NCBI RefSeq assembly: GCF_000014265.1
Contig: NC_008312.1
Span: 390,001-422,000 of the forward strand
Length of the DNA stretch: 32,000 bases
Reading direction: 5' to 3'
Source of the DNA: Trichodesmium erythraeum IMS101
GTDB taxonomy: Bacteria > Cyanobacteriota > Cyanobacteriia > Cyanobacteriales > Microcoleaceae
Shown: positions 3,261 to 32,000 of the stretch, one piece after another
Layout: each line of letters begins with the position of its first letter
Numbering within the stretch: position 1 is the first letter of the stretch
Made by a program: the position numbers and the translations under genes
The notes under the pieces: model-generated
Databases searched by the model: none
What the model was told of the DNA's origin: nothing
What the model saw: only the letters and a program-made list of their open reading frames with translations

Positions 3261-3780
3261 TGGATACCAGCAAAACTAAATAATCCTAACAGAAGTTGAA
3301 AAAAATATCTATCCTCAAAAAGGTAAATTAAGTTTAATTTGACATTCTTAACTTTATATAAACTTTTCTATCAATAACTTGGCAGTTTCTTAAGATTTAC
3401 TTAATAAATTAGCTCTTATAGTTAAATTACCTAAAAATTTTCACAACCAAATAAAAATAATTATTTTATGTTGGAGTTTTCTGATGATAGGAGTAAAATA
3501 TCAAGTAAAGAATAGACTCACAATTAGAGAAAATTGATCAACTAAAAAGTTAAATTAAAAAGTCAGAAGTTACAAATAGTAAGAGAGAGAAATTTTCTAC
3601 TAATTTTAATTTGCTTAACTGAAATTTATAGTAGGATTTCTTCAGCTTATTTGAAACCCTGGGAAATAGAAAGTTAAGTTTGAAAATTATTTATGAAAAA
3701 CTTCTAAGATATAACTTCCTATCGTTGTTTAGTAGAATATTATGGCATAAAAGTATCGCCTTTTACCTGCATTATTATAA

Positions 3781-6162
3781 CTAATTACCAACAATAACAA
3801 ATGGTGATCAATAATAAGGTTTCTTGTATTCCTCTGAATTTAATTTAATCTCTCCTTTAATAAATTTAATTTGAACTTGACATAGTGCTTCTGCCTTTCT
3901 CAGTTATCAACTATTAGACTGCTGTGAACTATCAGACTGCAACTCCAATAATTGTTCATAAAATTGTTTCATTAATTATGCTGTCGAGGTATCATTTACA
4001 CTCCATAAACTCCCTAAAATACTAATAGCTCCTTCCCGAACTGCAACTCCAGCCAAACCCAATGCTGCTCCTTGATCCCCAATTGCTGTCTGACAAGCAC
4101 TTAAACTTAATAACTCTATAGCTCGATCCGATCGCTGCAAATTATCACTCTGGAGCAGTTGATTGAAATCTTTAACATTAATAGGTTGATCCCATGCTAA
4201 AATATAAGTTTGATAGGAATTAAAACTAAATTATCCGTGAGTTGCAATATGGAGAATGTTAAAGGGCTGAGAATTAATTTTGTCTTAAATTGTAATTTTT
4301 GTGAATTTTTCATCTACTAATTCCTCAGACTGTCGCATTGTATCATTGATAGCCTCTAGTTTCTGTTCAACGTTAGGTAAACTATCATAGCCTTTCCTCT
4401 ATAACTTGGTGCTTCTTTACCTATTCCAGCAGTTAATACTCGTACTTCCTTTTTTAATAAGGGTTTGGGATCAAGCAATTTCAAACTGGGAGCTACAGCG
4501 ATCGCGTATCGTTCCACTACATATCTTTCCCGTTCACTATCATATAAAACGGATATAGGAATATTTCTGAGTTTTCCTTCCCAGACAAAAACTAGGGTTT
4601 TTATTTAACTCGCATCATGTTTTAGATCTATTTCCAAATATCCCTCAAAAGGTTTAATGAACCAATTATAAAGTTGATTTGACTGGGATTTGATTTCACT
4701 TATTAGCTTTGGTTTTCGAGGACTAAGTGTAATATCAAACCTGAGTCTGAAAGGTTTTCCTCAAATTTAGCTTGAAAGTCACTCTCACTTACGGTAGCAT
4801 AACGAAAATCATCAGTGCCAGACAATTTAAGAATCACACTTAATCTATCCTTGAATAAGATTGGATAAATAATAGCTGCGCTCTGATAAATTTTATCAAT
4901 ATTAATATCCTGAGCATTCACACAAGCATCTTGGAAAAAATTATCTAATTCTGCCAATTTTAGAGATTCAATTACTTCAACAGCAACTCTAATATTTGCC
5001 ACATTGGGTTTATTTGAATCGAGTTCAGGTTGAAGTAATAAGTCTAGAAAATTTCTATACAAAGGTTCAATACTATCACGAAAGTTAAACTGAATATCTC
5101 GATTTAATGCTACTAAATCCCGTCGTAAAACTTAGAGATTATTAAAAGCATATTTGTCAGCTAAGAGTGCTTATGAATAATTTTCTTGTTCAATGAAAAT
5201 ATATCCTAATTGTTATTGAAATTGATGAAAAATATCATAATTAGATACTTTTTGGGCATTCAAAAATTCTTTATTTGTCAATTTAAGTGTTTTTTATATA
5301 GTTTATTTTTTGACATTAAATCTTGCCTATGCGCGAATTTTGTAAGCTTCTAAACGGTAATTATTAATATCTTTTGCTTGTTCAATTTTCCGTTTTAATA
5401 ACTCGTTAGTCAAAGTTAATTTAGTAATATTATCTGAGATTAAACAAAAGCTAATTTATCTTTAATTTCCTCAATATCGGGGTCAACAATATTGATAAAA
5501 ACTTCTGCTAATTTAGTTCTGGCTAGAATTGATTTAGGAGTGAGAATAATTTGATTTAAAGAATTAATGATTTTTGGTAAAGTATTAATGTGAAATAGAA
5601 CATCAGTATCTAAATCACCAATTTATTTAGTAAATTTTAGTAGCAAACTAAGATTATTAATAGTTTTTTGAATTTGAACTAATTTGTCAGTATAAATATT
5701 TACAGCTTCTTGATAATTAGATAAATTTTGATTAACTAGGGTTTTAAGTTTTTGATCATCGGTGGAGAGTCAAATATTAGCCTCAATATTAGCAATATTT
5801 TTGGCTTGATAAAGTAGATTATTACCTAAATTAATCAACAATTGAGCTTTAGTATTATTAGAATTTGCCCACTTATAACTTGCTTCTAATACCTTTTCAG
5901 ATAACTCCAATTTACCGAATGCCAGTAGTCCATTTCCTAAAATTTGTAACCACTGAAAATTAAGGCTAGTATTTGATATTTGAAACTTTTGCAGAATATT
6001 TTCTAAGTTATTTTCAGTTAGCGGCCGTCAACCATTACTTGCAATGTCTAATTAACCAAATTCTAAAACTCTTTCTCTATGTTTGGCTGTTTTTTGGTCC
6101 AACAACAACTTTTTTAGCACTTCTTCTGACTCTGTAATATTAATTTTTAGTACTCCAGACAT
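3781..6162 (-). pseudogene. CHAT-domain (caspase-fold) protein with helical/TPR-like N-terminal region, disrupted by multiple stops and frameshifts
   Basis: Minus-strand translation fragments include a start MSGVLKINITESEEVLKKLLLDQK (ATG at 6162) and the track ORF 4703-5062 (central region). FNILHIATHG* at ~4235-4260 is the catalytic His motif followed by a stop. WDQPINVKDFNQLLQSDNLQRSDRAIELLSLSACQTAIGDQGAALGLAGVAVREGAISILGSLWSVNDTSTA* is the catalytic Cys motif and ends at 3976. The tail AEALCQVQIKFIKGEIKLNSEEYKKPYY*SPFVIVGN* has a TGA where CHAT proteins have the conserved YYW Trp, and ends at 3781. Only 119 aa remain as an open frame. Confidence 0.75.
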
Positions 6163-6734
6163 AGATTTCTAATATTATGCGATCGCTTTCGTTATTTGTA
6201 ACATTCTTTTTCCACCCTTGGTATTATGCAAGTCAATTCCCTTCTTGATATTTTATTTGAAAGAACAGCAAATTCCTCTATCCCCTTAATCATTCGTTAT
6301 TGTGCAATGCTCCTTTCTCCATGATGGGGAACCAAAACAAAAGTTAAACTAAAGAATATAATGCTAACAACTGTTGAATGTGACAGCGACGACTTTCATA
6401 TTTAAAGGGCAGAGGAAAATAAGCAGCTAACATGCCCTATTTTGATATTTTTTCGGACAGTAATTAACCAAACTAAAATTTTTCAAGTTTGGATTTTAGT
6501 TCTAGTCAAAATTTTTTGAAAATGTAATTTATAGAATAATAAAAATTGTATTTAAATTAGTCTCTTTGTGTAAACATATTGATTTTTTTTACCATAAAAT
6601 GTAACTAATTGCCATATAATAAAGTGATTGTTTAAGATTTTTTTCTTAAGTCTAAATACTTACTCAAATTTTCTGGCTTTTATATACTATATTTTGTAGT
6701 ATATAAACTGGATTGAATAATTGATTTCGGGGTG

Positions 6735-7410
6735 TGGAGTAGCGATCGCTAATTTACTAAATGCCATACCAATTCAATTATGTCATAACCTGGACTATAT
6801 TTAGACAAATACTCTAAATAGATATTTAGAATTTATGTTTCAATTTTATTAATATATTCTGCTTTCAATTTAAAATAATCTAGAGCTAAAATAATTACTA
6901 TTTTGGCTCCTTTTTGGCAATTTACTCTCTTTTATCATCAGCTTTTATCCATTCATTTATTATCTCTTAATTAAATATTTTTAACACTTCATCAAAACTT
7001 TTGCTATTGCTGATTTTCAAAAAATCTATGAATCTTTAATAATTTTAAACATCGTCTCCAAACATTGCATTTACTCTCGGTTTTATTCAATCTATTCTTA
7101 CTTTTTTCCTTAGCCCTTGATTATACCAATAAACAATTTTTGATTACTCTTAAATCCAATCCACTTTCGTCTTAAAATCATACCGAAAAACTTTTTTTAT
7201 TAGTATTTTTTTATTTTTAAATACTCTTCTATATTTCTTTAAATTTTTTATTTTTTCAAGATTATTATAGAACTCCCAGCTATATTTTCTCCTTATGTAA
7301 ACGTACCTTTCTCTTTACTTACCCCATTTCCCTAATTATTGTGTTTAAAATAATCAGAGTCGGAAAATTTATTCAAACAATCTAATTTAGCCTTTTGTCC
7401 TAAAAAATGT
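6735..7410 (-). mobile_element. Degenerate IS630-family (Tc1/mariner-like DDE) transposase relic
   Basis: Minus-strand frames give KIVIILALDYFKLKAEYINKIET*ILNIYLEYLSKYSPGYDIIELVWHLVN. This fits the IS630 pattern xIxLILDNxxxHKxx...LxFLPxYSPxLNxIExVWxxLK. Upstream pieces are FFGMILRRKWIGFKSNQKLFIGIIKG and GQKAKLDCLNKFSDSDYF. There are many stops and frameshifts, and no ORF of 60 aa or more. The boundaries are approximate. Confidence 0.5.
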
Positions 7411-7559
7411 ACTTGATATACCAATCTATTATGATATTAGAGAAAGTATCATATTTAGTAAAATCAGGTATACTAAAGAATTGTACTTTTCCATAATACC
7501 TCATTTATATTCAAAATCATTTAGGATTACTATAGTATATTTATAGAGTTTTATTATCT

Positions 7560-15453: not shown

Positions 15454-15582
15454 ACAATTATATCTCCTAAAATAACTTTGAGTCAGTTATAGTTATTATT
15501 TTAGCTTGATTTGACTTTTGAAAACGGAGCGAAGCAAAATCTAGAATAGAGAACTATGAATTAAGAAGCGGTTTGTAAACAA

Positions 15583-15690
15583 TTATGAAGTATTAGTAGC
15601 GATCGCTAACCGTTTGAGCATTAAACGAATCATTGAAATATGAATGAAGGCTTCGCTGTTTTGAGGATGTTCTTCATAATCTTTAGAATG
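15583..15690 (-). mobile_element. C-terminal fragment of an IS5-family transposase
   Basis: Minus-strand translation gives HSKDYEEHPQNSEAFIHISMIRLMLKRLAIATNTS*. This fits the conserved IS5-family C-terminus (R-L-S-K-D-Y-E...S-E-A-x-I-x-I-x-M-I-R-L-M-L-K-R-L). It is cut off exactly where the IS1-like sequence begins. Confidence 0.5.
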
Positions 15691-16215
15691 TATGTTAATG
15701 CTATGGGCTTAAGAGGAATATCAAGAGTCAAAAAGCTACACCATACTACAATTATCAACTCAATTAAACAAGCAGGAAAACTATTACCACGTTCTTACTC
15801 TCCTCAAAAAACTCCTCAAGTAAGAGAGCTAGAAGAATTACAGACATAATTAGGCTCAAAAAAAACCAAATTTGGGTATGAACGGCAATAAATCATTTTA
15901 AAAAAGGAATTTTAGAATGGGTTATTGGAAATTGTAGTGGAAAAACATTTTATCCTTTATGGGAACAAGTTAAAAAATGGGAATGTTATTTTTAAGTCAC
16001 ATATGGATGGAAAGTATATGCCAAGGCCTATTAATGATAGGGATAAAATTATCAGCAAAACCTATATGACCATTGTAGTTGGAGAAAATACTAGACTTCG
16101 GCAATATCTTGCCAGATGACATCGAAGGACTCTTTGCTACTCAAAATAATTCCGAGAAGTTAAAGCATTCAATTCCCTTACTGATTCATTAAATATCAAT
16201 TTTGGGATGTTCTAG
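15691..16215 (+). mobile_element. IS1-family transposase pseudogene (N-terminally truncated, several stops/frameshifts)
   Basis: Concatenated frames read YVNAMGLRGISRVKKLHHTTIINSIKQAGKLLP...ELEELQT*LGSKKTKFGYERQ*IILKKEF*NGLLEIVVEKHF..LYGNKLKNGNVIFKSHMDGKYMPRPINDRDKIISKTYMTIVVGENTRLRQYLAR*HRRTLCYSK*. This is colinear with IS1 InsAB blocks (YVNGMGFR.I, GSKKNK.W, YFYVTDGWKVY, ISKTYMTRVEGENTRLRHYLARLHRKT.CYSK). Track ORFs 15640-15849 and 15925-16119 are pieces of it. Confidence 0.7.
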
Positions 16216-16399
16216 TTCCTTATAGATATTTACAGCGATCGCTATGAACTCAAATCATACCTTAATTCACCAAAGCCTTATTATTTAACAACTACATTGT
16301 TTAGTGAATTTATTCAATAAAAATTAACAAAATCTTACCTGCATTTATTCTCTGATTACTACTAGTACCAGGACTGAGATTAAAGATAGTATGTATGAG

Positions 16400-16843
16400 C
16401 TAAAAAACCAGGAAGTAGAATTGAGCTGAATTCACTAAGAAGATACGCGTTTATGTAATGTGCCTGGGTAAGTCTTAATCATATAAATCTATTATCATTG
16501 GTATAATTCAGTATTGATAAATAATTTTTGGGAAAGATTTAATAGCACCAATTATATTTAAAATAACCCTAAATGCCGTGGGATTTGAACAATGGTTAGA
16601 TAAACATTTATTACCATCATTAAAAATTCCCAATATACTAATTATGAGAATTAAGCAATTCATAGAAAAAAGGTTATTAGAGAATTAGTAGAAGCAGGGG
16701 GTAATCAATTACTATTTTTGCCAAAATACTCTCCTGATTTAAATAACTAAGAACATGATTTTAGTGCATTAAAAAGAGCTAGAATCTATTCACCTATCAA
16801 TACATCTCTTGATGAAATTCTTCGTAATTATTGTACCAAATAG
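16400..16843 (+). mobile_element. IS630-family transposase relic (C-terminal half)
   Basis: Frames give KSIIIGIIQY**IIFGKDLIAPIIFKITLNAVGFEQWLDKHLLPSLKIPNILIMRIKQFIEKRLLEN** and then ELVEAGGNQLLFLPKYSPDLNN*EHDFSALKRARIYSP...LRNYCTK*. The LLFLP-x-YSPDLN-x-x-E motif is diagnostic. The left boundary is approximate. Confidence 0.6.
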
Positions 16844-17440
16844 TGTCTCATTCTTATTCAAAATAACTATATTATTTAGATACTTCTCCACGTCCAATCT
16901 TATGTTGATTGACCCACTGCTCTATTACCATTACAGTGAGCCAAAATATCATACTCCCTCATTACTTTACAGCCCTTTTCAGATAAATAAACCACAATGA
17001 TATAACCAAGCAAAGCCATCATCTTCAGTAATTTCAGTGATCGCTTCTGTTAAATAGGGCTGGCTAGTTAACTTTCAAAAGACCTTTCCATAAAAGGTTA
17101 TCAAACCCTTGCCCCGCCATTCCCAAATCAGCGTTTTTCGAGATATCTAAAGTATTGACACAATTATGCTTTAGCCAAATTTTGCACAAGGCACGAAAAG
17201 TACCAGAAGTTTCATAGCTAAAGCTCATGTATGGATAAGATTTTGGGCATACCTAGGCCTAAAAAATCAGGGGACAATTCTTACTACACCAGACCTGATG
17301 ACCAAGCCATTTATCCGTACCTCAGTTCTGACCTGCTCAACCTGCTAATAAAACAACCCTCACCCCATTAGACAATAGATATGCTAACCCGAAATTTGGC
17401 TTTTGAGGTGCCTGTCACCCCGTGAGATAGTTAACTTATA

Positions 17441-17472
17441 AACAAAAGAGCCTGTATCTTTGATACAAGCTC
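17441..17472 (-). terminator. Intrinsic terminator downstream of rplL
   Basis: On the minus strand, GAGCTTGTATC-AAA-GATACAGGCTC forms an 11-bp stem with one G-U pair (17448-17472). TTTTGTT follows at 17441-17447, about 70 nt after the rplL stop. Confidence 0.65.
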
Positions 17473-17543
17473 TGACAAAAAAGTCTAGAAATATGATGTA
17501 ATTTTTAAGCAAATATTATTTACTAACATTTTCTCAAAGATAA

Positions 17544-18737: not shown

Positions 18738-19186
18738 CTTTATCACCTCCTTAACAAATTGACATTACATAAATGCAGGATAATTTTAATAGTTTTATAG
18801 AATGGACATCTTGCCTGCTAATTATATTTTCAGACGGGTATAGTCATGGACAAAGTCCTCAAGACATTTTTGCACCTCTCAAGTTTAGTCCGTGCTGGCA
18901 ATTTAACTCTTGATATTATGTCCGCTCATAAGATTAAGTAACAATTAGAAAAAAAGCTTTTGATTTTCTTCCACCAAAGTGTAAGTATTTAAAGAGGTAT
19001 AATACACCATTGGATTGGGCAAATGATGTACAAAGCGTGAATGGTAAAATCATACTAGTGAGAATATCTAGTCCGTAGGTGTATACCTCACGGGCAGCGG
19101 AAGTGCCATATTACTTCTGACATCTGACTTTAGCAAAAGGGATGCTTACTCCACTTATATTCACCCTACCTCTGAGCAATACCCAA

Positions 19187-19222
19187 ATCAAAAACCCTAG
19201 CAGATTTAGCTATCTGCCAGGG
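19187..19222 (-). terminator. Terminator-like hairpin inside the rplA-rplJ spacer
   Basis: On the minus strand, CCCTGGCAGAT-AGCTAA-ATCTGCTAGGG forms an 11-bp stem with one mismatch (19195-19222). TTTTTGAT follows directly at 19187-19194. It lies ~610 nt downstream of the rplA stop and ~450 nt upstream of the rplJ start. Confidence 0.5.
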
Positions 19223-19829
19223 CTAAGAATTATCAAATCCAAATCAAGCAATTAAATTAGGGTCTTTAATAAAACTCCCTATTGTTATCTTTGAATAATT
19301 AATTCTTGAACCTCGGCAGAAAATTAAGCTATTAGCACCTGCTGTCTTTAGCTCTTGAATTTGAAATTTTTTGGAAAATTTTTCAGCTTTTTTATATTGA
19401 CATCAAACTGACTTATACAGTTAACTAAATTGTTGACATCCTCCCCGGCTTGTTAGAAAAGGGAAAAAACCGATTCTTAGATCTAATTTAGGTTCATGTC
19501 TAATAGACTGTTGCAGCTACCCTCAAAAGAGGTAGGTTAGTCTGGTCGATCCGTCCATTTAAAGTCTCGGAATGCCCAAGCGCAACTTACCAAAAATTCT
19601 TGTGGGTCTTTATTTGTCTATTCAGATTTGAACTGCTCCGAAACCTGAAAGCTTCCCAAGTTATGCTCTCAACTGAAGGAGTTTCGACCTAATCTTCTTT
19701 TCTACAGAATTTATGAAACAAGGCATGTAAATAACTCATCTTATTATAACATGCAAAGCCAACCAATAGATGGGCGAGACTTTCAACTTAAATTTTTCGG
19801 CAATTACTGAGTGCTGATAGCTTTTCAAA

Positions 19830-22295: not shown

Positions 22296-22368
22296 CGCGC
22301 CCTGGAGGACTCGAACCCCCGACATCAGGTTTTGGAGACCTGCGTTCTACCAACTGAACTAAGAGCGC
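22296..22368 (-). tRNA. trnW: tRNA-Trp (anticodon CCA), 73 nt, 3' CCA not encoded
   Basis: The minus-strand sequence is GCGCTCTTAGTTCAGTTGGTAGAACGCAGGTCTCCAAAACCTGATGTCGGGGGTTCGAGTCCTCCAGGGCGCG. It folds by hand into a cloverleaf. The acceptor stem pairs GCGCTCT with AGGGCGC. The D arm is GTTC/GAAC. The anticodon arm is CAGGT-CTCCAAA-ACCTG. The T arm is GGGGG-TTCGAGT-CCTCC. Confidence 0.9.
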
Positions 22369-25936: not shown

Positions 25937-27622
<1,686 letters not shown>

Positions 27623-27776: not shown

Positions 27777-27848
27777 TCTGACAGCAAAATTTATGTAAAT
27801 TTGAGAGTGCTATAATTGTTCTAATTAACATTGATATTTTTAACAATT

Positions 27849-30800
27849 ATGGCTGTTAAACTGTTGGACGATTTTTCGAAATCTCTCGGGTTGGAAACTG
27901 TTAACGGTGGGGCTAACCTTGTTAAGGCGCTTTTTAAATTAGCTGAGACACTAGAAAAATATAAGGATACTCAGGAATTAAAGTCTGCTATTGAAAAGAT
28001 TAATATTGAATCTCTGTTGGATGCACTAAATTCTCCATTGGGAAGTGTTGTTAGAGATAGTGTACCTTTCTTGCCTATTGCAACTGGAATTATTTCTTAT
28101 ATTGTTAAACAAAGTCGTCAGGAGCCTACTTTGGAAGATGAGGTGCAGTTGTTGGTTCAGGTGGCTTTTTTAGAAAGTTTTCGACAATTTTTTGTAGAGC
28201 ATCCAGAAATTAAGGAGCAGTTCACAGACACTGAGGCTTCGGAGGATGTAAAAAAACAGATTAAGAAGTTGGGTAAAGATGGTTTTAATCGCCAAGATGC
28301 TAAGGATACTTTGATTTGTTTTTATGATTCACCGTTGAGAGAAAAGTTTGATAATGTTGTATTGGCACGCTTAAAAGAGTCTGGTTTGGATGAAAAAACG
28401 GCGAAAATAGTGACTGAAAGAATTTCTCGCAGTACCCATCGTTATATGAAAGAAGCGGTATCAGAGGTGAAGGATGATGCTAAAAAATTAGCGGGAATTT
28501 ATGGGTATGGCTGGCAGCAAGATTTGGAGGTTTATGGGAGTGTTGATGGGTATTTGAAAAATAAAGTTGCTCGTCTGCCAGAGGAAAAAGTATTTGATGA
28601 AAGTTTCTCTTTTCAGGATATTTATGTACCACTTGAGGTCGAGTCTGTGTCCGATGGAGAGGTTGATAAAAATGCTGAATCTCAGAATATTGAGAAGTGG
28701 GCAAAAACAATTTTGTTACCTCAACACTTTGATGAAAATTTTGATGAAAATTCGCGGAAAAATAATGAGGAAAAAGATAAAAAAGATAAACAGGTTTTAT
28801 TTATTCAAGGGGGGCCTGGAAGAGGAAAAAGTGTATTTTGCCGGATGTTTGCTGACTGGGTGCGGCGGGAACTACATCCTATCTATACCCCTATTTTGAT
28901 CCGGTTGCGAGATGTGAAAAATTTTGCAGCAAATATTGATCAGACTCTGGCTGATGCTGTGAATTACGATTTTGTGAAAATTGATGGGGGCTGGTTGACA
29001 GACCGGAATACTCGGTTTCTGTTTTTGCTGGATGGGTTTGATGAGTTGTTGTTGGAGCGGGGGGCAAGCAGTGAGTTGAAGGTGTTTTTAGATCAGGTAG
29101 CACAGTTTCAGAAACAGGCAGCGGAAAATAAGGAGCGCGGTCATCGGGTTTTGATCACGGGTAGACCTTTGGCGCTTTATGGTATTGAAAGGTTGATGCC
29201 TCCTAATTTGGAGCGGGTGAGTATTTTGCCGATGGATGATGATATCCAGGGACAGTGGTTTGAGAAGTGGCGGACGGTGGTGGGGGATGAGGAAACAGAA
29301 AAGTTTGGGGAGTTTTTACGGAGTGAACAATGTCCGGAGCAGGTTAACGAGTTGGCGCGGGAACCTCTTTTGTTGTATTTGCTGGCTTCAATGCACAGGG
29401 GTGGGAAGTTAAAGGTAGAGATGTTTGCTAATACTGATGTTGGTGAGACAAAGGTTTTAATTTATGAGCAGGCGTTGGAGTGGGTACTGGAAAAACAGCG
29501 GGTAGAAGAGGGTAAAAATATTAATCTTGAAATTACGAAGTTGGAGCCAGAAGATCTGGAGGTTTTATTGACAGAGGCGGGGTTGTGTGTGGTGCAGTCT
29601 GGTGGGGAATATGCTGCTATAGAAATGATCGAGGAGCGGCTGGTGAAAAAGGGAGATAAGGAGTTAAAGCGGTTAATTGAAAATGCTAGGGAAGATAAGC
29701 GGGAGGATGGGTTGAAAAATGCTTTGGCTGCTTTTTATTTGAAGTCGGCAACGGGGGCAGAAAATTCGGTGGAGTTTTTTCATAAGAGTTTTGGTGAGTT
29801 TCTCTGTGCAAAACGGATGGCAGAAAGTCTGGAATATTTTACGCAGAAAACTAAGAAAGGACGCAAGTTTAGTTACTCTGTTTCTGATGAGGAGTTGGTA
29901 TGGCAGGTTTACGATCTGTTTGGTTATGGGGGTTTAACCGTGGAAGTTGTGGAGTATTTGATGGCTTTGTTGGTGAAAAGTGAAGCAAAGCTGGTGGTTT
30001 TGTTTGAGCGCTTACATGAGTTTTATCTAGACTGGTGTGATGGGAAGTTTATTGAGGCGACGGAGGAAACTTTACCTCAGAAAAAGGCGAGGGAGTTGCA
30101 GCAGTGGCGTATTAAGTCTGGGCAACGCCAAGTGGATATTTATACTGGGTTGAATGTGATTATTTTGTTGTTTGAGCTGGATCGTTATGGGCAGTCTCAG
30201 GAGGAGTTGCGGGAGCAGTTGCGTTTTTATCCTTGCGGTCAACATGGTAGTGAAAATTTTGAGGCTCTAAAACTGTTAACAATTATTGGCTATAGTCAAT
30301 GTTTAGGAGTTGGTGCGTTTTGGGAAACAGTAGGTCAGTTTCTAAGTGGTGCCGACCTCAGATATGCCGACCTCAGTGGTGCCTACCTCATAGTTGCCAA
30401 CCTCAGATATGCCGACCTCAGTGGTGCCTACCTCATAAGTGCCGACCTCAGTGGTGCCTACCTCATAGGTGCCAACCTCATAGGTGCCGACCTCAGTCGT
30501 GCCGACCTCAGATATGCCGACCTCAGTGGTGCTAACCTCAGTGATGCCAAACTCAGTGGTGCTAACCTCAGTGATGCCAAACTCAGTGGTGCCGGCCTCA
30601 GTGGTGCCGACCTCAGATATGCCGACCTCAGTGGTGCTGACCTCAGTCGTGCCAAACTCAGTGATGCCGGCCTCAGTGGTGCCAACCTCAGTGTTGCCGG
30701 CCTCAGTGGTGCCGACCTCAGATATGCCGACCTCAGTGGTGCCGACCTCAGATATGCCGACCTCAGTGGTGCTGACCTCAGTGATGCCAACCTTAGTAAT

Positions 30801-30950
30801 GTCAGATGGAATAGTCAAACCAAGTGGTCAAATACTATTGGTTTACATGAAGCAATAGAAGTTCCAGAAGACTTACAACAAGATCCAGAATTTGCCGCAG
30901 CAGTTGCTGAGTCGGAAGCAGCAAGTCAAGAACAACAGTACATTTTTTGA
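27849..30950 (+). CDS. STAND-class NACHT NTPase with uncharacterised helical N-terminal module and C-terminal pentapeptide-repeat domain
   Basis: The Walker A motif is GGPGRGKS (~28808-28831). The Walker B motif is [11 protein letters not shown] (~29014-29046), followed by VLITGRP. A helical region of about 350 aa comes next. Then 30 consecutive A(D/N/K/G/Y)LXX pentapeptides span 30351-30800. I placed the start at ATG 27849 (MAVKLLDD). The track ORF begins at TTG 27831. Confidence 0.85.
30351..30800 (+). repeat. Intragenic 15-nt (pentapeptide) repeat tract with 30-nt and 105-nt higher-order units
   Basis: There are 30 uninterrupted 15-nt units. The 30-31-nt block GCC(G/A)ACCTCAGATATGCCGACCTCAGTGGTGC recurs at 30351, 30396, 30501, 30606, 30711 and 30741. 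Four of these starts are spaced exactly 105 nt apart. The tract is stop-free in several frames on both strands, which produces four spurious track ORFs. Confidence 0.95.
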
Positions 30951-31140: not shown

Positions 31141-32000
31141 GGTGTTGGGTTGTGCTGGGTTTCGCCGGCTTAAGCTTACCTACGGGAGTGGGAGCTTTCA
31201 GTAAAGAGCTGGGAAGTTATGAGCGATCGCTACTTGGGAAAATTTTACCCCCAAATATATCTGTTGGGTTGTGTTGGGTTGGGCGGGCTTAAGCTTACCT
31301 ACGGGAGGGGGAGCTTTCAGTAAAGAGCTGGGAAGTTATGAGCGATCGCTACTTGGGAAAATTTTACCCCCAAATATATCTGTTGGGTTGTGTTGGGTTG
31401 GGCGGGCTCAAGCTTACCTACGGGAGGGGGAGCTTTCAGTAAAGAGCTGGGAAGTTATGAGCGATCGCTACTTGGGAAAATTTTACCCCCAAATATATCT
31501 GTTGGCTTGTGTTGGGTTGGGCGGGCTTAAGCTTACCTACGGGAGGGGGAGCTTTCAGTAAAGAGTTGGGAAGTTATGAGCGATCGCTACTTGGGAAAAT
31601 TTTACCCCCAAATATATCTGTTGGGTTGTGTTGGGTTTCGCCGGCTTAAGCTTACCTACGGGAGGGGGAGCTTTCAGTAAAGAGCTGGGAAGTTATGAGC
31701 GATCGCTACTTGGGAAAATTTTACCCCCAAATATATCTGTTGGGTTGTGTTGGGTTTCGCCGGCTTAAGCTTACCTACGGGAGGGGGAGCTTTCAGTAAA
31801 AAGCTGGGAAGTTATGAGCGATCGCTACTTGGGAAAATTTTACCCCCAAATATATCTGTTGGGTTGTGTTGGGTTTCGCCGGCTTAAGCTTACCTACGGG
31901 AGGGGGAGCTTTCAGTAAAAAGCTGGGAAGTTATGAGCGATCGCTACTTGGGAAAATTTTACCCCCAAATATATCTGTTGGCTTGTGTTGGGTTGGGCGG
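31141..32000. repeat. Exact 119-bp tandem repeat array, 7 full units plus a partial one, truncated by the window end
   Basis: The unit-start motif GTTGG(G/C)TTGTG occurs at 31144, 31263, 31382, 31501, 31620, 31739, 31858 and 31977, a spacing of 119 every time. The units are near-identical and each contains the HIP1 site GCGATCGC. A diverged partial copy lies at ~31040-31085. Confidence 0.95.

Follow-up and report, generated by a model that had tools for sequence, protein, structure and literature searches.

Analyzing a 32,000-nucleotide stretch of the Trichodesmium erythraeum IMS101 genome (contig NC_008312.1, positions 390,001 to 422,000 of the forward strand; hereafter the window, in whose own numbering all positions are given), we found that a gene on the plus strand at 27849..30950 encodes a protein that sequence profiles and structure prediction place as a stand-alone NLR-like STAND NTPase, built on a tripartite plan of an N-terminal NNH3 domain, a NACHT NTPase with an intact active site and a C-terminal pentapeptide-repeat domain. 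Between strains of this marine nitrogen-fixing cyanobacterium, the NACHT core is frozen, and divergence, mostly by amino-acid-changing differences, falls in the N-terminal head of the protein, in a loop close to it and in the repeat array. We interpret the protein as a cytosolic NNH3-NACHT-pentapeptide NLR-like switch whose most likely role is one in biological conflict, such as abortive defence against cyanophages, and we hold this interpretation to be probable without being firm, as a single statement that takes type, mechanism and conflict role together. What is new in our analysis, and the feature most worth following, is the strain-level hypervariability of the N-terminal head.

Domain architecture of the predicted switch

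The gene is a single plus-strand open reading frame (ORF) that can be opened at 27831 (TTG) or at 27849 (ATG) and ends at 30950, and counted from the ATG its coding sequence (27849..30950) yields 1033 aa plus stop, the length already read in a preliminary description made from the letters of the window alone. That description had also proposed a stand-alone NACHT/STAND protein with a NACHT-type P-loop, a helical N-terminal module and a C-terminal pentapeptide domain, and this plan held up under Pfam, AlphaFold2 (AF2) and Foldseek. The Pfam NACHT profile matched residues 316-474 (28794..29270, +) at 29.1 bits against a cut-off of 26.7, a marginal score, and the nSTAND3 score fell short of its own cut-off in the Trichodesmium protein. 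The catalytic motifs read from the sequence are intact, comprising a Walker A motif GGPGRGKS at residues 321-328 (28809-28832, +) that satisfies the pattern GxxxxGK[ST], a Walker B motif at residues 390-400 (29016-29048, +) whose LLD395-G-F-D-E399 fits the D[GAS]hDE signature, and a sensor-1 ITGRP at residues 436-440 (29154-29168, +). Across 50 homologues, G324, G326, K327 and S328 of Walker A, the Walker B signature and the TGR of the sensor motif are invariant, and the mean identity of the NACHT region to the query is 73% (49 aligned homologues).

The AF2 model, built with these 50 homologues, reached a mean predicted local distance difference test (pLDDT) score of 85.5 and a predicted template-modelling (pTM) score of 0.79, and in it an N-terminus of alpha helices alone precedes an alpha/beta NTPase, after which come helical and winged-helix domains, a beta-helix and a C-terminal helix. 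Its secondary structure assigns residues 481-830 (29289..30338, +) to successive helical, winged-helix and helical domains. Comparing the model with the Protein Data Bank (PDB), Foldseek matched animal NLRP3, NLRP7 and NLRP9 over 600-1100 columns with E values of 3e-9 to 1e-6, a match that concerns a predicted structure and has the low global TM-scores usual for multidomain proteins. These animal proteins share the fold predicted for the NTPase and helical/winged-helix domains, and also the tripartite effector/NOD/repeat plan, at an identity of 10-15%; animal NLRs possess a leucine-rich-repeat sensor and a PYD or CARD N-terminus, whereas the Trichodesmium protein possesses a pentapeptide beta-helix and NNH3.

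The N-terminal module, helical and without known identity in the preliminary description, matched Pfam PF22735, NNH3 ('NACHT N-terminal Helical domain 3'), over residues 51-255 (27999..28613, +; all-alpha) with E=1.8e-50, and its helical character was upheld, the N-terminal ~258 residues being all-helical by prediction in both the full-length and the NNH3-only AF2 models. The NNH3-only model has a pLDDT of 80.8, and residues 1-60 of the full-length model have pLDDT values of 39-68. Searching for a known fold for NNH3, we obtained no structural relative from Foldseek (best E 0.45 in PDB and 0.12 in BFVD), no match at E<=1 from phmmer with residues 1-830 against PDB sequences, and NNH3 itself as the sole Pfam match of the head alone, and we dropped the search on these results. 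The hydrophobic stretch that had been pointed out is present at residues 72-86 and belongs to a conserved hydrophobic helix, residues 73-89, that is part of NNH3; no membrane segment is predicted there or elsewhere, and Kyte-Doolittle means over 19 residues peak at 1.51, in another part of the protein. We rejected membrane anchoring or pore formation by this stretch, as no 19-residue window reaches the hydropathy typical of membrane segments.

Comparison with relatives divides this module in two. Residues 1-95 (27849..28133, +), hereafter the head, consist of short helices plus the hydrophobic helix 73-89 and occupy an exchangeable effector or adaptor position, because two relatives and one catalogued variant have other N-termini there: P0166 has PNP_UDP_1 (phosphorylase superfamily; residues 4-237), after which come a match to positions 51-213 of the NNH3 profile and NACHT; in P0193 this place is taken by an N-terminus of ~110 aa without a domain assignment; and the EAD10+NNH3 architecture tabulated by Kibby et al. 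(bioRxiv 10.1101/2022.07.19.500537) has EAD10. The junction of the swapped N-termini corresponds to residue ~95-100 of the Trichodesmium protein, and residues 96-290 form the constant helical core adjoining NACHT. Two long relatives, P0210 (1879 aa) and P0223 (1666 aa), have an insert of 400-650 aa between NNH3, which ends at ~210-218, and NACHT, which starts at 892 and 651, respectively; with no Pfam assignment at E<=0.001, this insert is possibly a further effector-side domain of the NNH3 family.

The C-terminal domain matched Pfam PF00805 (Pentapeptide) with E=1.7e-51 and comprises 30 pentads in one unbroken register, residues 835-984 (30351..30800, +), which we presume to be the sensor; its DNA counterpart is a 15-bp tandem repeat of 30.2 copies at 30345-30797. 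All 30 pentads read A-x-L-x-x, so the number and register given in the preliminary description stand, while the strict form A(D/N)Lxx claimed there for every unit is found in 21, position 2 being Y, K or G in the other nine. The region is modelled with pLDDT 95-98, and Foldseek placed Np275/276 nearest (TMt 0.83) alongside HetL, MfpA and QnrB1. The right-handed quadrilateral beta-helix of these proteins is predicted here with pLDDT above 95, with the difference that Np275/Np276, HetL, MfpA and QnrB1 stand alone, whereas in Trichodesmium it is the C-terminal domain of a 1033-aa STAND protein. The array is followed by a conserved cap (WxxxTxWxNxxGLHEA...PEF in the homologue consensus) and a terminal helix at 1013-1032 in the AF2 model (together 30801..30947, +); the cap has no Pfam match. 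Among the 50 homologues, the number of pentapeptide units ranges from 11 to 55.

Strain-level variation of the gene

Aligning the window with L003, a contig of a second T. erythraeum-like strain, we observed 98.2% identity over 12.7 kb, with a mismatch of ~0.25% outside the NLR gene (the 10 kb flank is ~99.8% identical) and no difference in the NACHT region. The divergence is held in three places, namely codons 3-72, codons 142-153 and the repeat array, where mismatches are concentrated more than 50-fold relative to the ~0.25% background. The first hypervariable patch (codons 3-72; 27855..28064, +) contains 57 nonsynonymous and 8 synonymous differences along with insertions/deletions (indels) of 21 nt and 6 nt, and is exactly the portion that precedes the conserved hydrophobic helix 73-89. 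The second (codons 142-153; 28272..28307, +), in a loop between helices, contains 11 nonsynonymous and 0 synonymous differences and a 3-nt indel. In the repeat array, 30 pentapeptide units in the window compare with ~12 in L003, a difference that could be partly a collapse in short-read assembly.

To quantify selection on the head we used codons 16-72, where the alignment is unambiguous. Between IMS101 and L003 these codons hold 38.5 nonsynonymous and 4.5 synonymous differences (ratio of nonsynonymous to synonymous rates, omega, about 3.2; p=0.013), and between IMS101 and a third allele, L086, they hold 28 nonsynonymous and 0 synonymous differences (p=0.0005), with the rest of the gene showing 70 nonsynonymous and 28 synonymous (omega about 0.65) for the latter pair. 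With L004 as the outgroup (synonymous divergence, dS, about 0.45), NACHT has an omega of 0.12 and residues 481-830 one of 0.27; the head has 0.84 in the IMS101 allele, compared with 0.36-0.46 in the others. In the Trichodesmium data the head occurs in at least three types, as does the loop, with the IMS101 head an outlier relative to the family consensus, and the two patches recombine independently, given that the fragment P0122 is a mosaic allele that pairs the IMS101 head with an L003-type loop. Drawn from few metagenomic alleles, these counts indicate localized positive selection on the head, which, like the effector swaps at the N-terminus, gives some support to a defence reading. Hypermutation of the head by a diversity-generating retroelement was excluded by the broad substitution spectrum between the window and L003 (A>G 21, G>A 13, C>T 11, T>C 9, T>G 9, C>G 9 and others) and by the indels of 21, 6 and 3 nt.

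Family, locus context and competing readings

Relatives retrieved with residues 1-820 number at least 1200; the 120 best have near-complete query coverage and 50-92% identity, a few fragments excepted, and are cyanobacterial wherever a taxon is named. The genomes of GTDB species hold at least 350 such NLR-like loci; our locus statistics rest on 80 of them, which are essentially all cyanobacterial and mostly filamentous, include a few genomes with two copies, and have full-length identities of 45-87% over many cyanobacterial lineages (45-47% for the Nostoc and Scytonema copies). Within 1.84 billion representatives the NNH3 family is small, forming 193 clusters at 50% identity, and the domain is nearly always N-terminal; among 45 diverse NNH3 proteins NACHT was matched in 43 (best E=1.4e-13) and pentapeptide repeats in 41.

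The NNH domains were named by Kibby et al. in 'Bacterial NLR-related proteins protect against phage' (bioRxiv 10.1101/2022.07.19.500537), which reports anti-phage activity for other NACHT clades, classes pentapeptide repeats among 'antigen-receptor type' sensors and defines in its Table S1 a clade 9 of NNH3 or NNH4 plus NACHT plus pentapeptide, with the variants EAD10+NNH3+NACHT+Pp, NNH3+NACHT+Pp+REC and NNH4+NACHT+Ntox49. The PF22735 match supplies the N-terminal domain listed for this clade, and the Trichodesmium protein, absent from the listed representatives, has the same three-domain order and Pfam families as clade-9 proteins such as NJO80537.1, WP_168505314.1 and WP_118166576.1, a similar length, and the same phylum as the NNH3 versions. 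We therefore infer from identical architecture and phylum, rather than from placement on a NACHT tree, that the gene is of the clade 9 type. The preliminary description had considered both the combination of domains and the N-terminal module to lack a described function: we too met with no publication that assigns a function to NNH3 or to NACHT-pentapeptide proteins, but both proved to be catalogued, the combination as clade 9 and the module as Pfam NNH3.

Upstream of the NLR gene lies groEL (25937-27622), and the order EamA-groEL-NLR is shared with L003, with Trichodesmium sp. MAG_R02 (L015) and with two Dapis species (L010 and L017). In L015, L010 and L017 GroEL is 93-94% and the NLR protein 67-87% identical to those of the window. 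This synteny from Trichodesmium to Dapis overturns the earlier impression of an accessory-looking context, and the inheritance of the gene is vertical and locus-stable; more distant homologues lie in unrelated housekeeping neighborhoods. The lack of an obvious operon partner, also remarked on earlier, extends across the 80 loci, where clustering of flanking ORFs gave no conserved partner gene beyond genus-level synteny. A partner was rejected; the largest neighbour cluster, with 18 loci, consists of antisense ORFs that arise artificially from the pentapeptide array. Because no neighbour family is common to the 80 loci beyond that synteny, the gene is a one-gene system. With a core frozen between strains beside a diverging head, loop and array, it is a clean single-gene case and a usable natural experiment on which surfaces of bacterial NLRs face conflict-driven selection.

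In the mechanism that we propose, the ligand-free pentapeptide domain would hold the NLR protein off until a ligand docks on its beta-helix, a protein or peptide that would be phage-derived or a guarded host factor. Binding would permit nucleotide exchange and NACHT-driven oligomerization, which would cluster the N-terminal NNH3 domains such that the first ~95 residues give the output by induced proximity, whether by assembling into a toxic, non-enzymatic complex or through recruitment of a partner. Residues 1-95 would deliver this output because relatives have a PNP_UDP phosphorylase or an EAD10 adaptor there, and they are accordingly the place in NNH3 to seek output activity. We favour a conflict role because of the pattern of selection, the effector swaps and the precedent set by the family, and we regard a defence reading as plausible. 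The precedent includes the tested proteins bNACHT01, bNACHT11 and bNACHT25 (Kibby et al.; PMC12169576), which share with the Trichodesmium protein a NACHT with the D[GAS]hDE Walker B and single-gene NLR-like logic. The tested bNACHT series differs in its N- and C-terminal domains and represents other NACHT clades, no clade-9 entry bearing the bNACHT label, and the Trichodesmium gene differs from the series in sitting at a conserved housekeeping locus.

A number of observations weigh against a conflict role or limit the evidence for it. No clade-9 entry in Table S1 of Kibby et al. (10.1101/2022.07.19.500537) carries the label of a tested bNACHT. PADLOC-DB v2 returned just Avs1b (E=0.0061, 11.9 bits, ~50 residues at the P-loop) and PHROGs nothing meaningful for the Trichodesmium protein, such that a match to a known defence or phage family was dropped. 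The gene lies outside anything resembling a defence island, with housekeeping neighbors and a locus kept from Trichodesmium to Dapis. Foldseek recognized neither a catalytic nor a pore-forming fold for NNH3 in PDB or BFVD, so the output step is purely inferred. The evidence for selection comes from few alleles, mostly on short-read metagenome contigs, the difference in repeat number shares in the assembly caveat given above, and the strong conservation of the NACHT core, in mean identity as in omega, would suit a physiological regulator too.

Such a regulator is the serious rival, given the conserved locus and core, and we consider it unlikely but deserving of real weight. On this account the protein would be a vertically inherited, non-immune STAND switch of cell state (filament or colony behaviour, differentiation or stress) that responds to an endogenous ligand, like HetL in heterocyst patterning. 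It would sit well with a locus that is stable across genera and beside housekeeping genes, a core under strong purifying selection, the breadth of lineages over which full-length identity is retained, Alr5209 and HetL as the top NCBIfam matches of the repeats and the lack of a match to a defence hidden Markov model; a 2026 preprint also names AfsR as an example of bacterial NLR-type regulators that are non-immune. It accounts less well for head divergence that is localized, with nonsynonymous far above synonymous change and mosaic alleles, for more than one copy in some genomes, for conflict-type modules (PNP_UDP_1, EAD10, Ntox49) at the head position in relatives, and for the patchy distribution of the at least 350 loci in the genomes of GTDB species.

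The preliminary description had favoured a different sensor, suggesting that the pentapeptide beta-helix mimics B-DNA in the manner of MfpA and Qnr, traps DNA-binding proteins of an invader and thereby trips the NACHT switch, and this we find quite doubtful. The net charge of the repeat domain, -8 over 150 aa in the Trichodesmium protein, and the Foldseek matches to MfpA and QnrB1 (E around 1e-7) are in its favour, but Np275/276 and HetL are structurally nearer, likeness among pentapeptide proteins stems from the repeat itself, and the NCBIfam scores for Qnr (50.4 bits against a cut-off of 240) and MfpA (42.7 against 360) miss by a wide margin, with the HetL family score far below its own cut-off as well. 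Nothing specific supports the idea, since homologues differ greatly in the number of repeats and in net charge (+5.2 to -14.5 per 100 aa for the latter among the 50 homologues), such that a conserved DNA-like surface or length is unlikely to be a family property.

A receptor for allorecognition or kin discrimination among colony-forming filaments, with head and loop patches encoding strain identity as in the fungal NACHT proteins HET-E/D, could draw on the independently shuffled head and loop types, the strong nonsynonymous excess and the filamentous or colonial habit of the cyanobacteria behind most of the 80 loci, but we consider it very improbable, as no data tie the alleles to colony behaviour, the polymorphism of fungal HET-E/D lies in the C-terminal repeats and not in the N-terminus, and we know of no cytoplasmic mixing between filaments, which the fungal analogy needs.

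Returning to the conflict-type switch, a bolder version of it holds that the NNH3 head is a new non-enzymatic NLR output module that is itself an arms-race battleground, with two small surface patches (residues 3-72 and 142-153) and the repeats kept polymorphic, recombining and positively selected in Trichodesmium populations, while the remainder of this vertically inherited gene stays almost unchanged. We rate this version as unlikely; if true, diversification would extend to the effector side, beyond the sensor side alone, and multicellular cyanobacteria would possess in NACHT clade 9 a long-lived 'germline' receptor for immunity or allorecognition. Taken more modestly, the finding is a further member of an NLR-like clade that is catalogued and experimentally untouched, a result of modest importance.

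A link to chaperones was also evaluated. PMC12169576 reports that bNACHT25 senses phage through, or needs, DnaJ, and chaperone genes are found next to or within ~2 kb of the NLR gene in 7 of 80-odd loci. They belong to two lineage-specific contexts, with groEL adjoining the gene in Trichodesmium and Dapis only (window, L003, L010, L015 and L017) and dnaJ lying ~2 kb away in L004 (1299-2312), L028 and L009 only. We discounted the link as lineage-level synteny, and the proximity is probably a coincidence.

Gene start, tandem arrays and other features of the window

Sequence search recovered a Trichodesmium erythraeum protein (P0001) that is 100% identical to the ORF product, annotated merely as a 'pentapeptide repeat-containing protein' and given as 1028 aa from a TTG start five codons 3' of the ATG (27864 vs 27849). 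The deposited start is probably too short, and we prefer the ATG at 27849 because homologue N-termini read MAxKL... and translation from this codon begins MAVKL..., which fits the family better. An extended -10-like element read from the sequence, TGCTATAAT (27808..27816, +), lies 33 nt 5' of the ATG and is a candidate for the gene's own promoter; it is only a lead, because consensus scans for promoters and terminators gave nothing exceeding shuffle expectation.

A tandem array of 119-bp units, at least 7.2 in number and 97% identical, lies directly 3' of the NLR gene (31143-31995, cut by the end of the window), and each unit contains a GCGATCGC palindrome that we take to be HIP1. The same array in L003 (13043-13289) has about 2 copies only, a difference that is either real or a collapse in short-read assembly. 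A structured RNA was rejected for this array on RNA fold z-scores of -0.9 and -1.2 and the lack of an Rfam match. The GGM tail of GroEL is coded by a perfect 9-bp repeat with 6.2 copies in the window (27542-27597) and 3.2 in L003 (9721-9749), and all three tandem arrays of the locus (GGM tail, pentapeptide and 119-bp) are longer in the window than in L003. Several ORFs of 78-158 aa within or antisense to the pentapeptide array (30299-30858, both strands) are by-products of its 15-bp periodicity.

Elsewhere in the window, G+C content ranges from 26 to 49%, and long stretches, e.g., 3261-7559 and 15454-17543, are without ORFs of at least 120 aa. Rfam identified an L10 leader upstream of rplJ and one tRNA, at 19180-19369 (-) and 22296-22368 (-), respectively.

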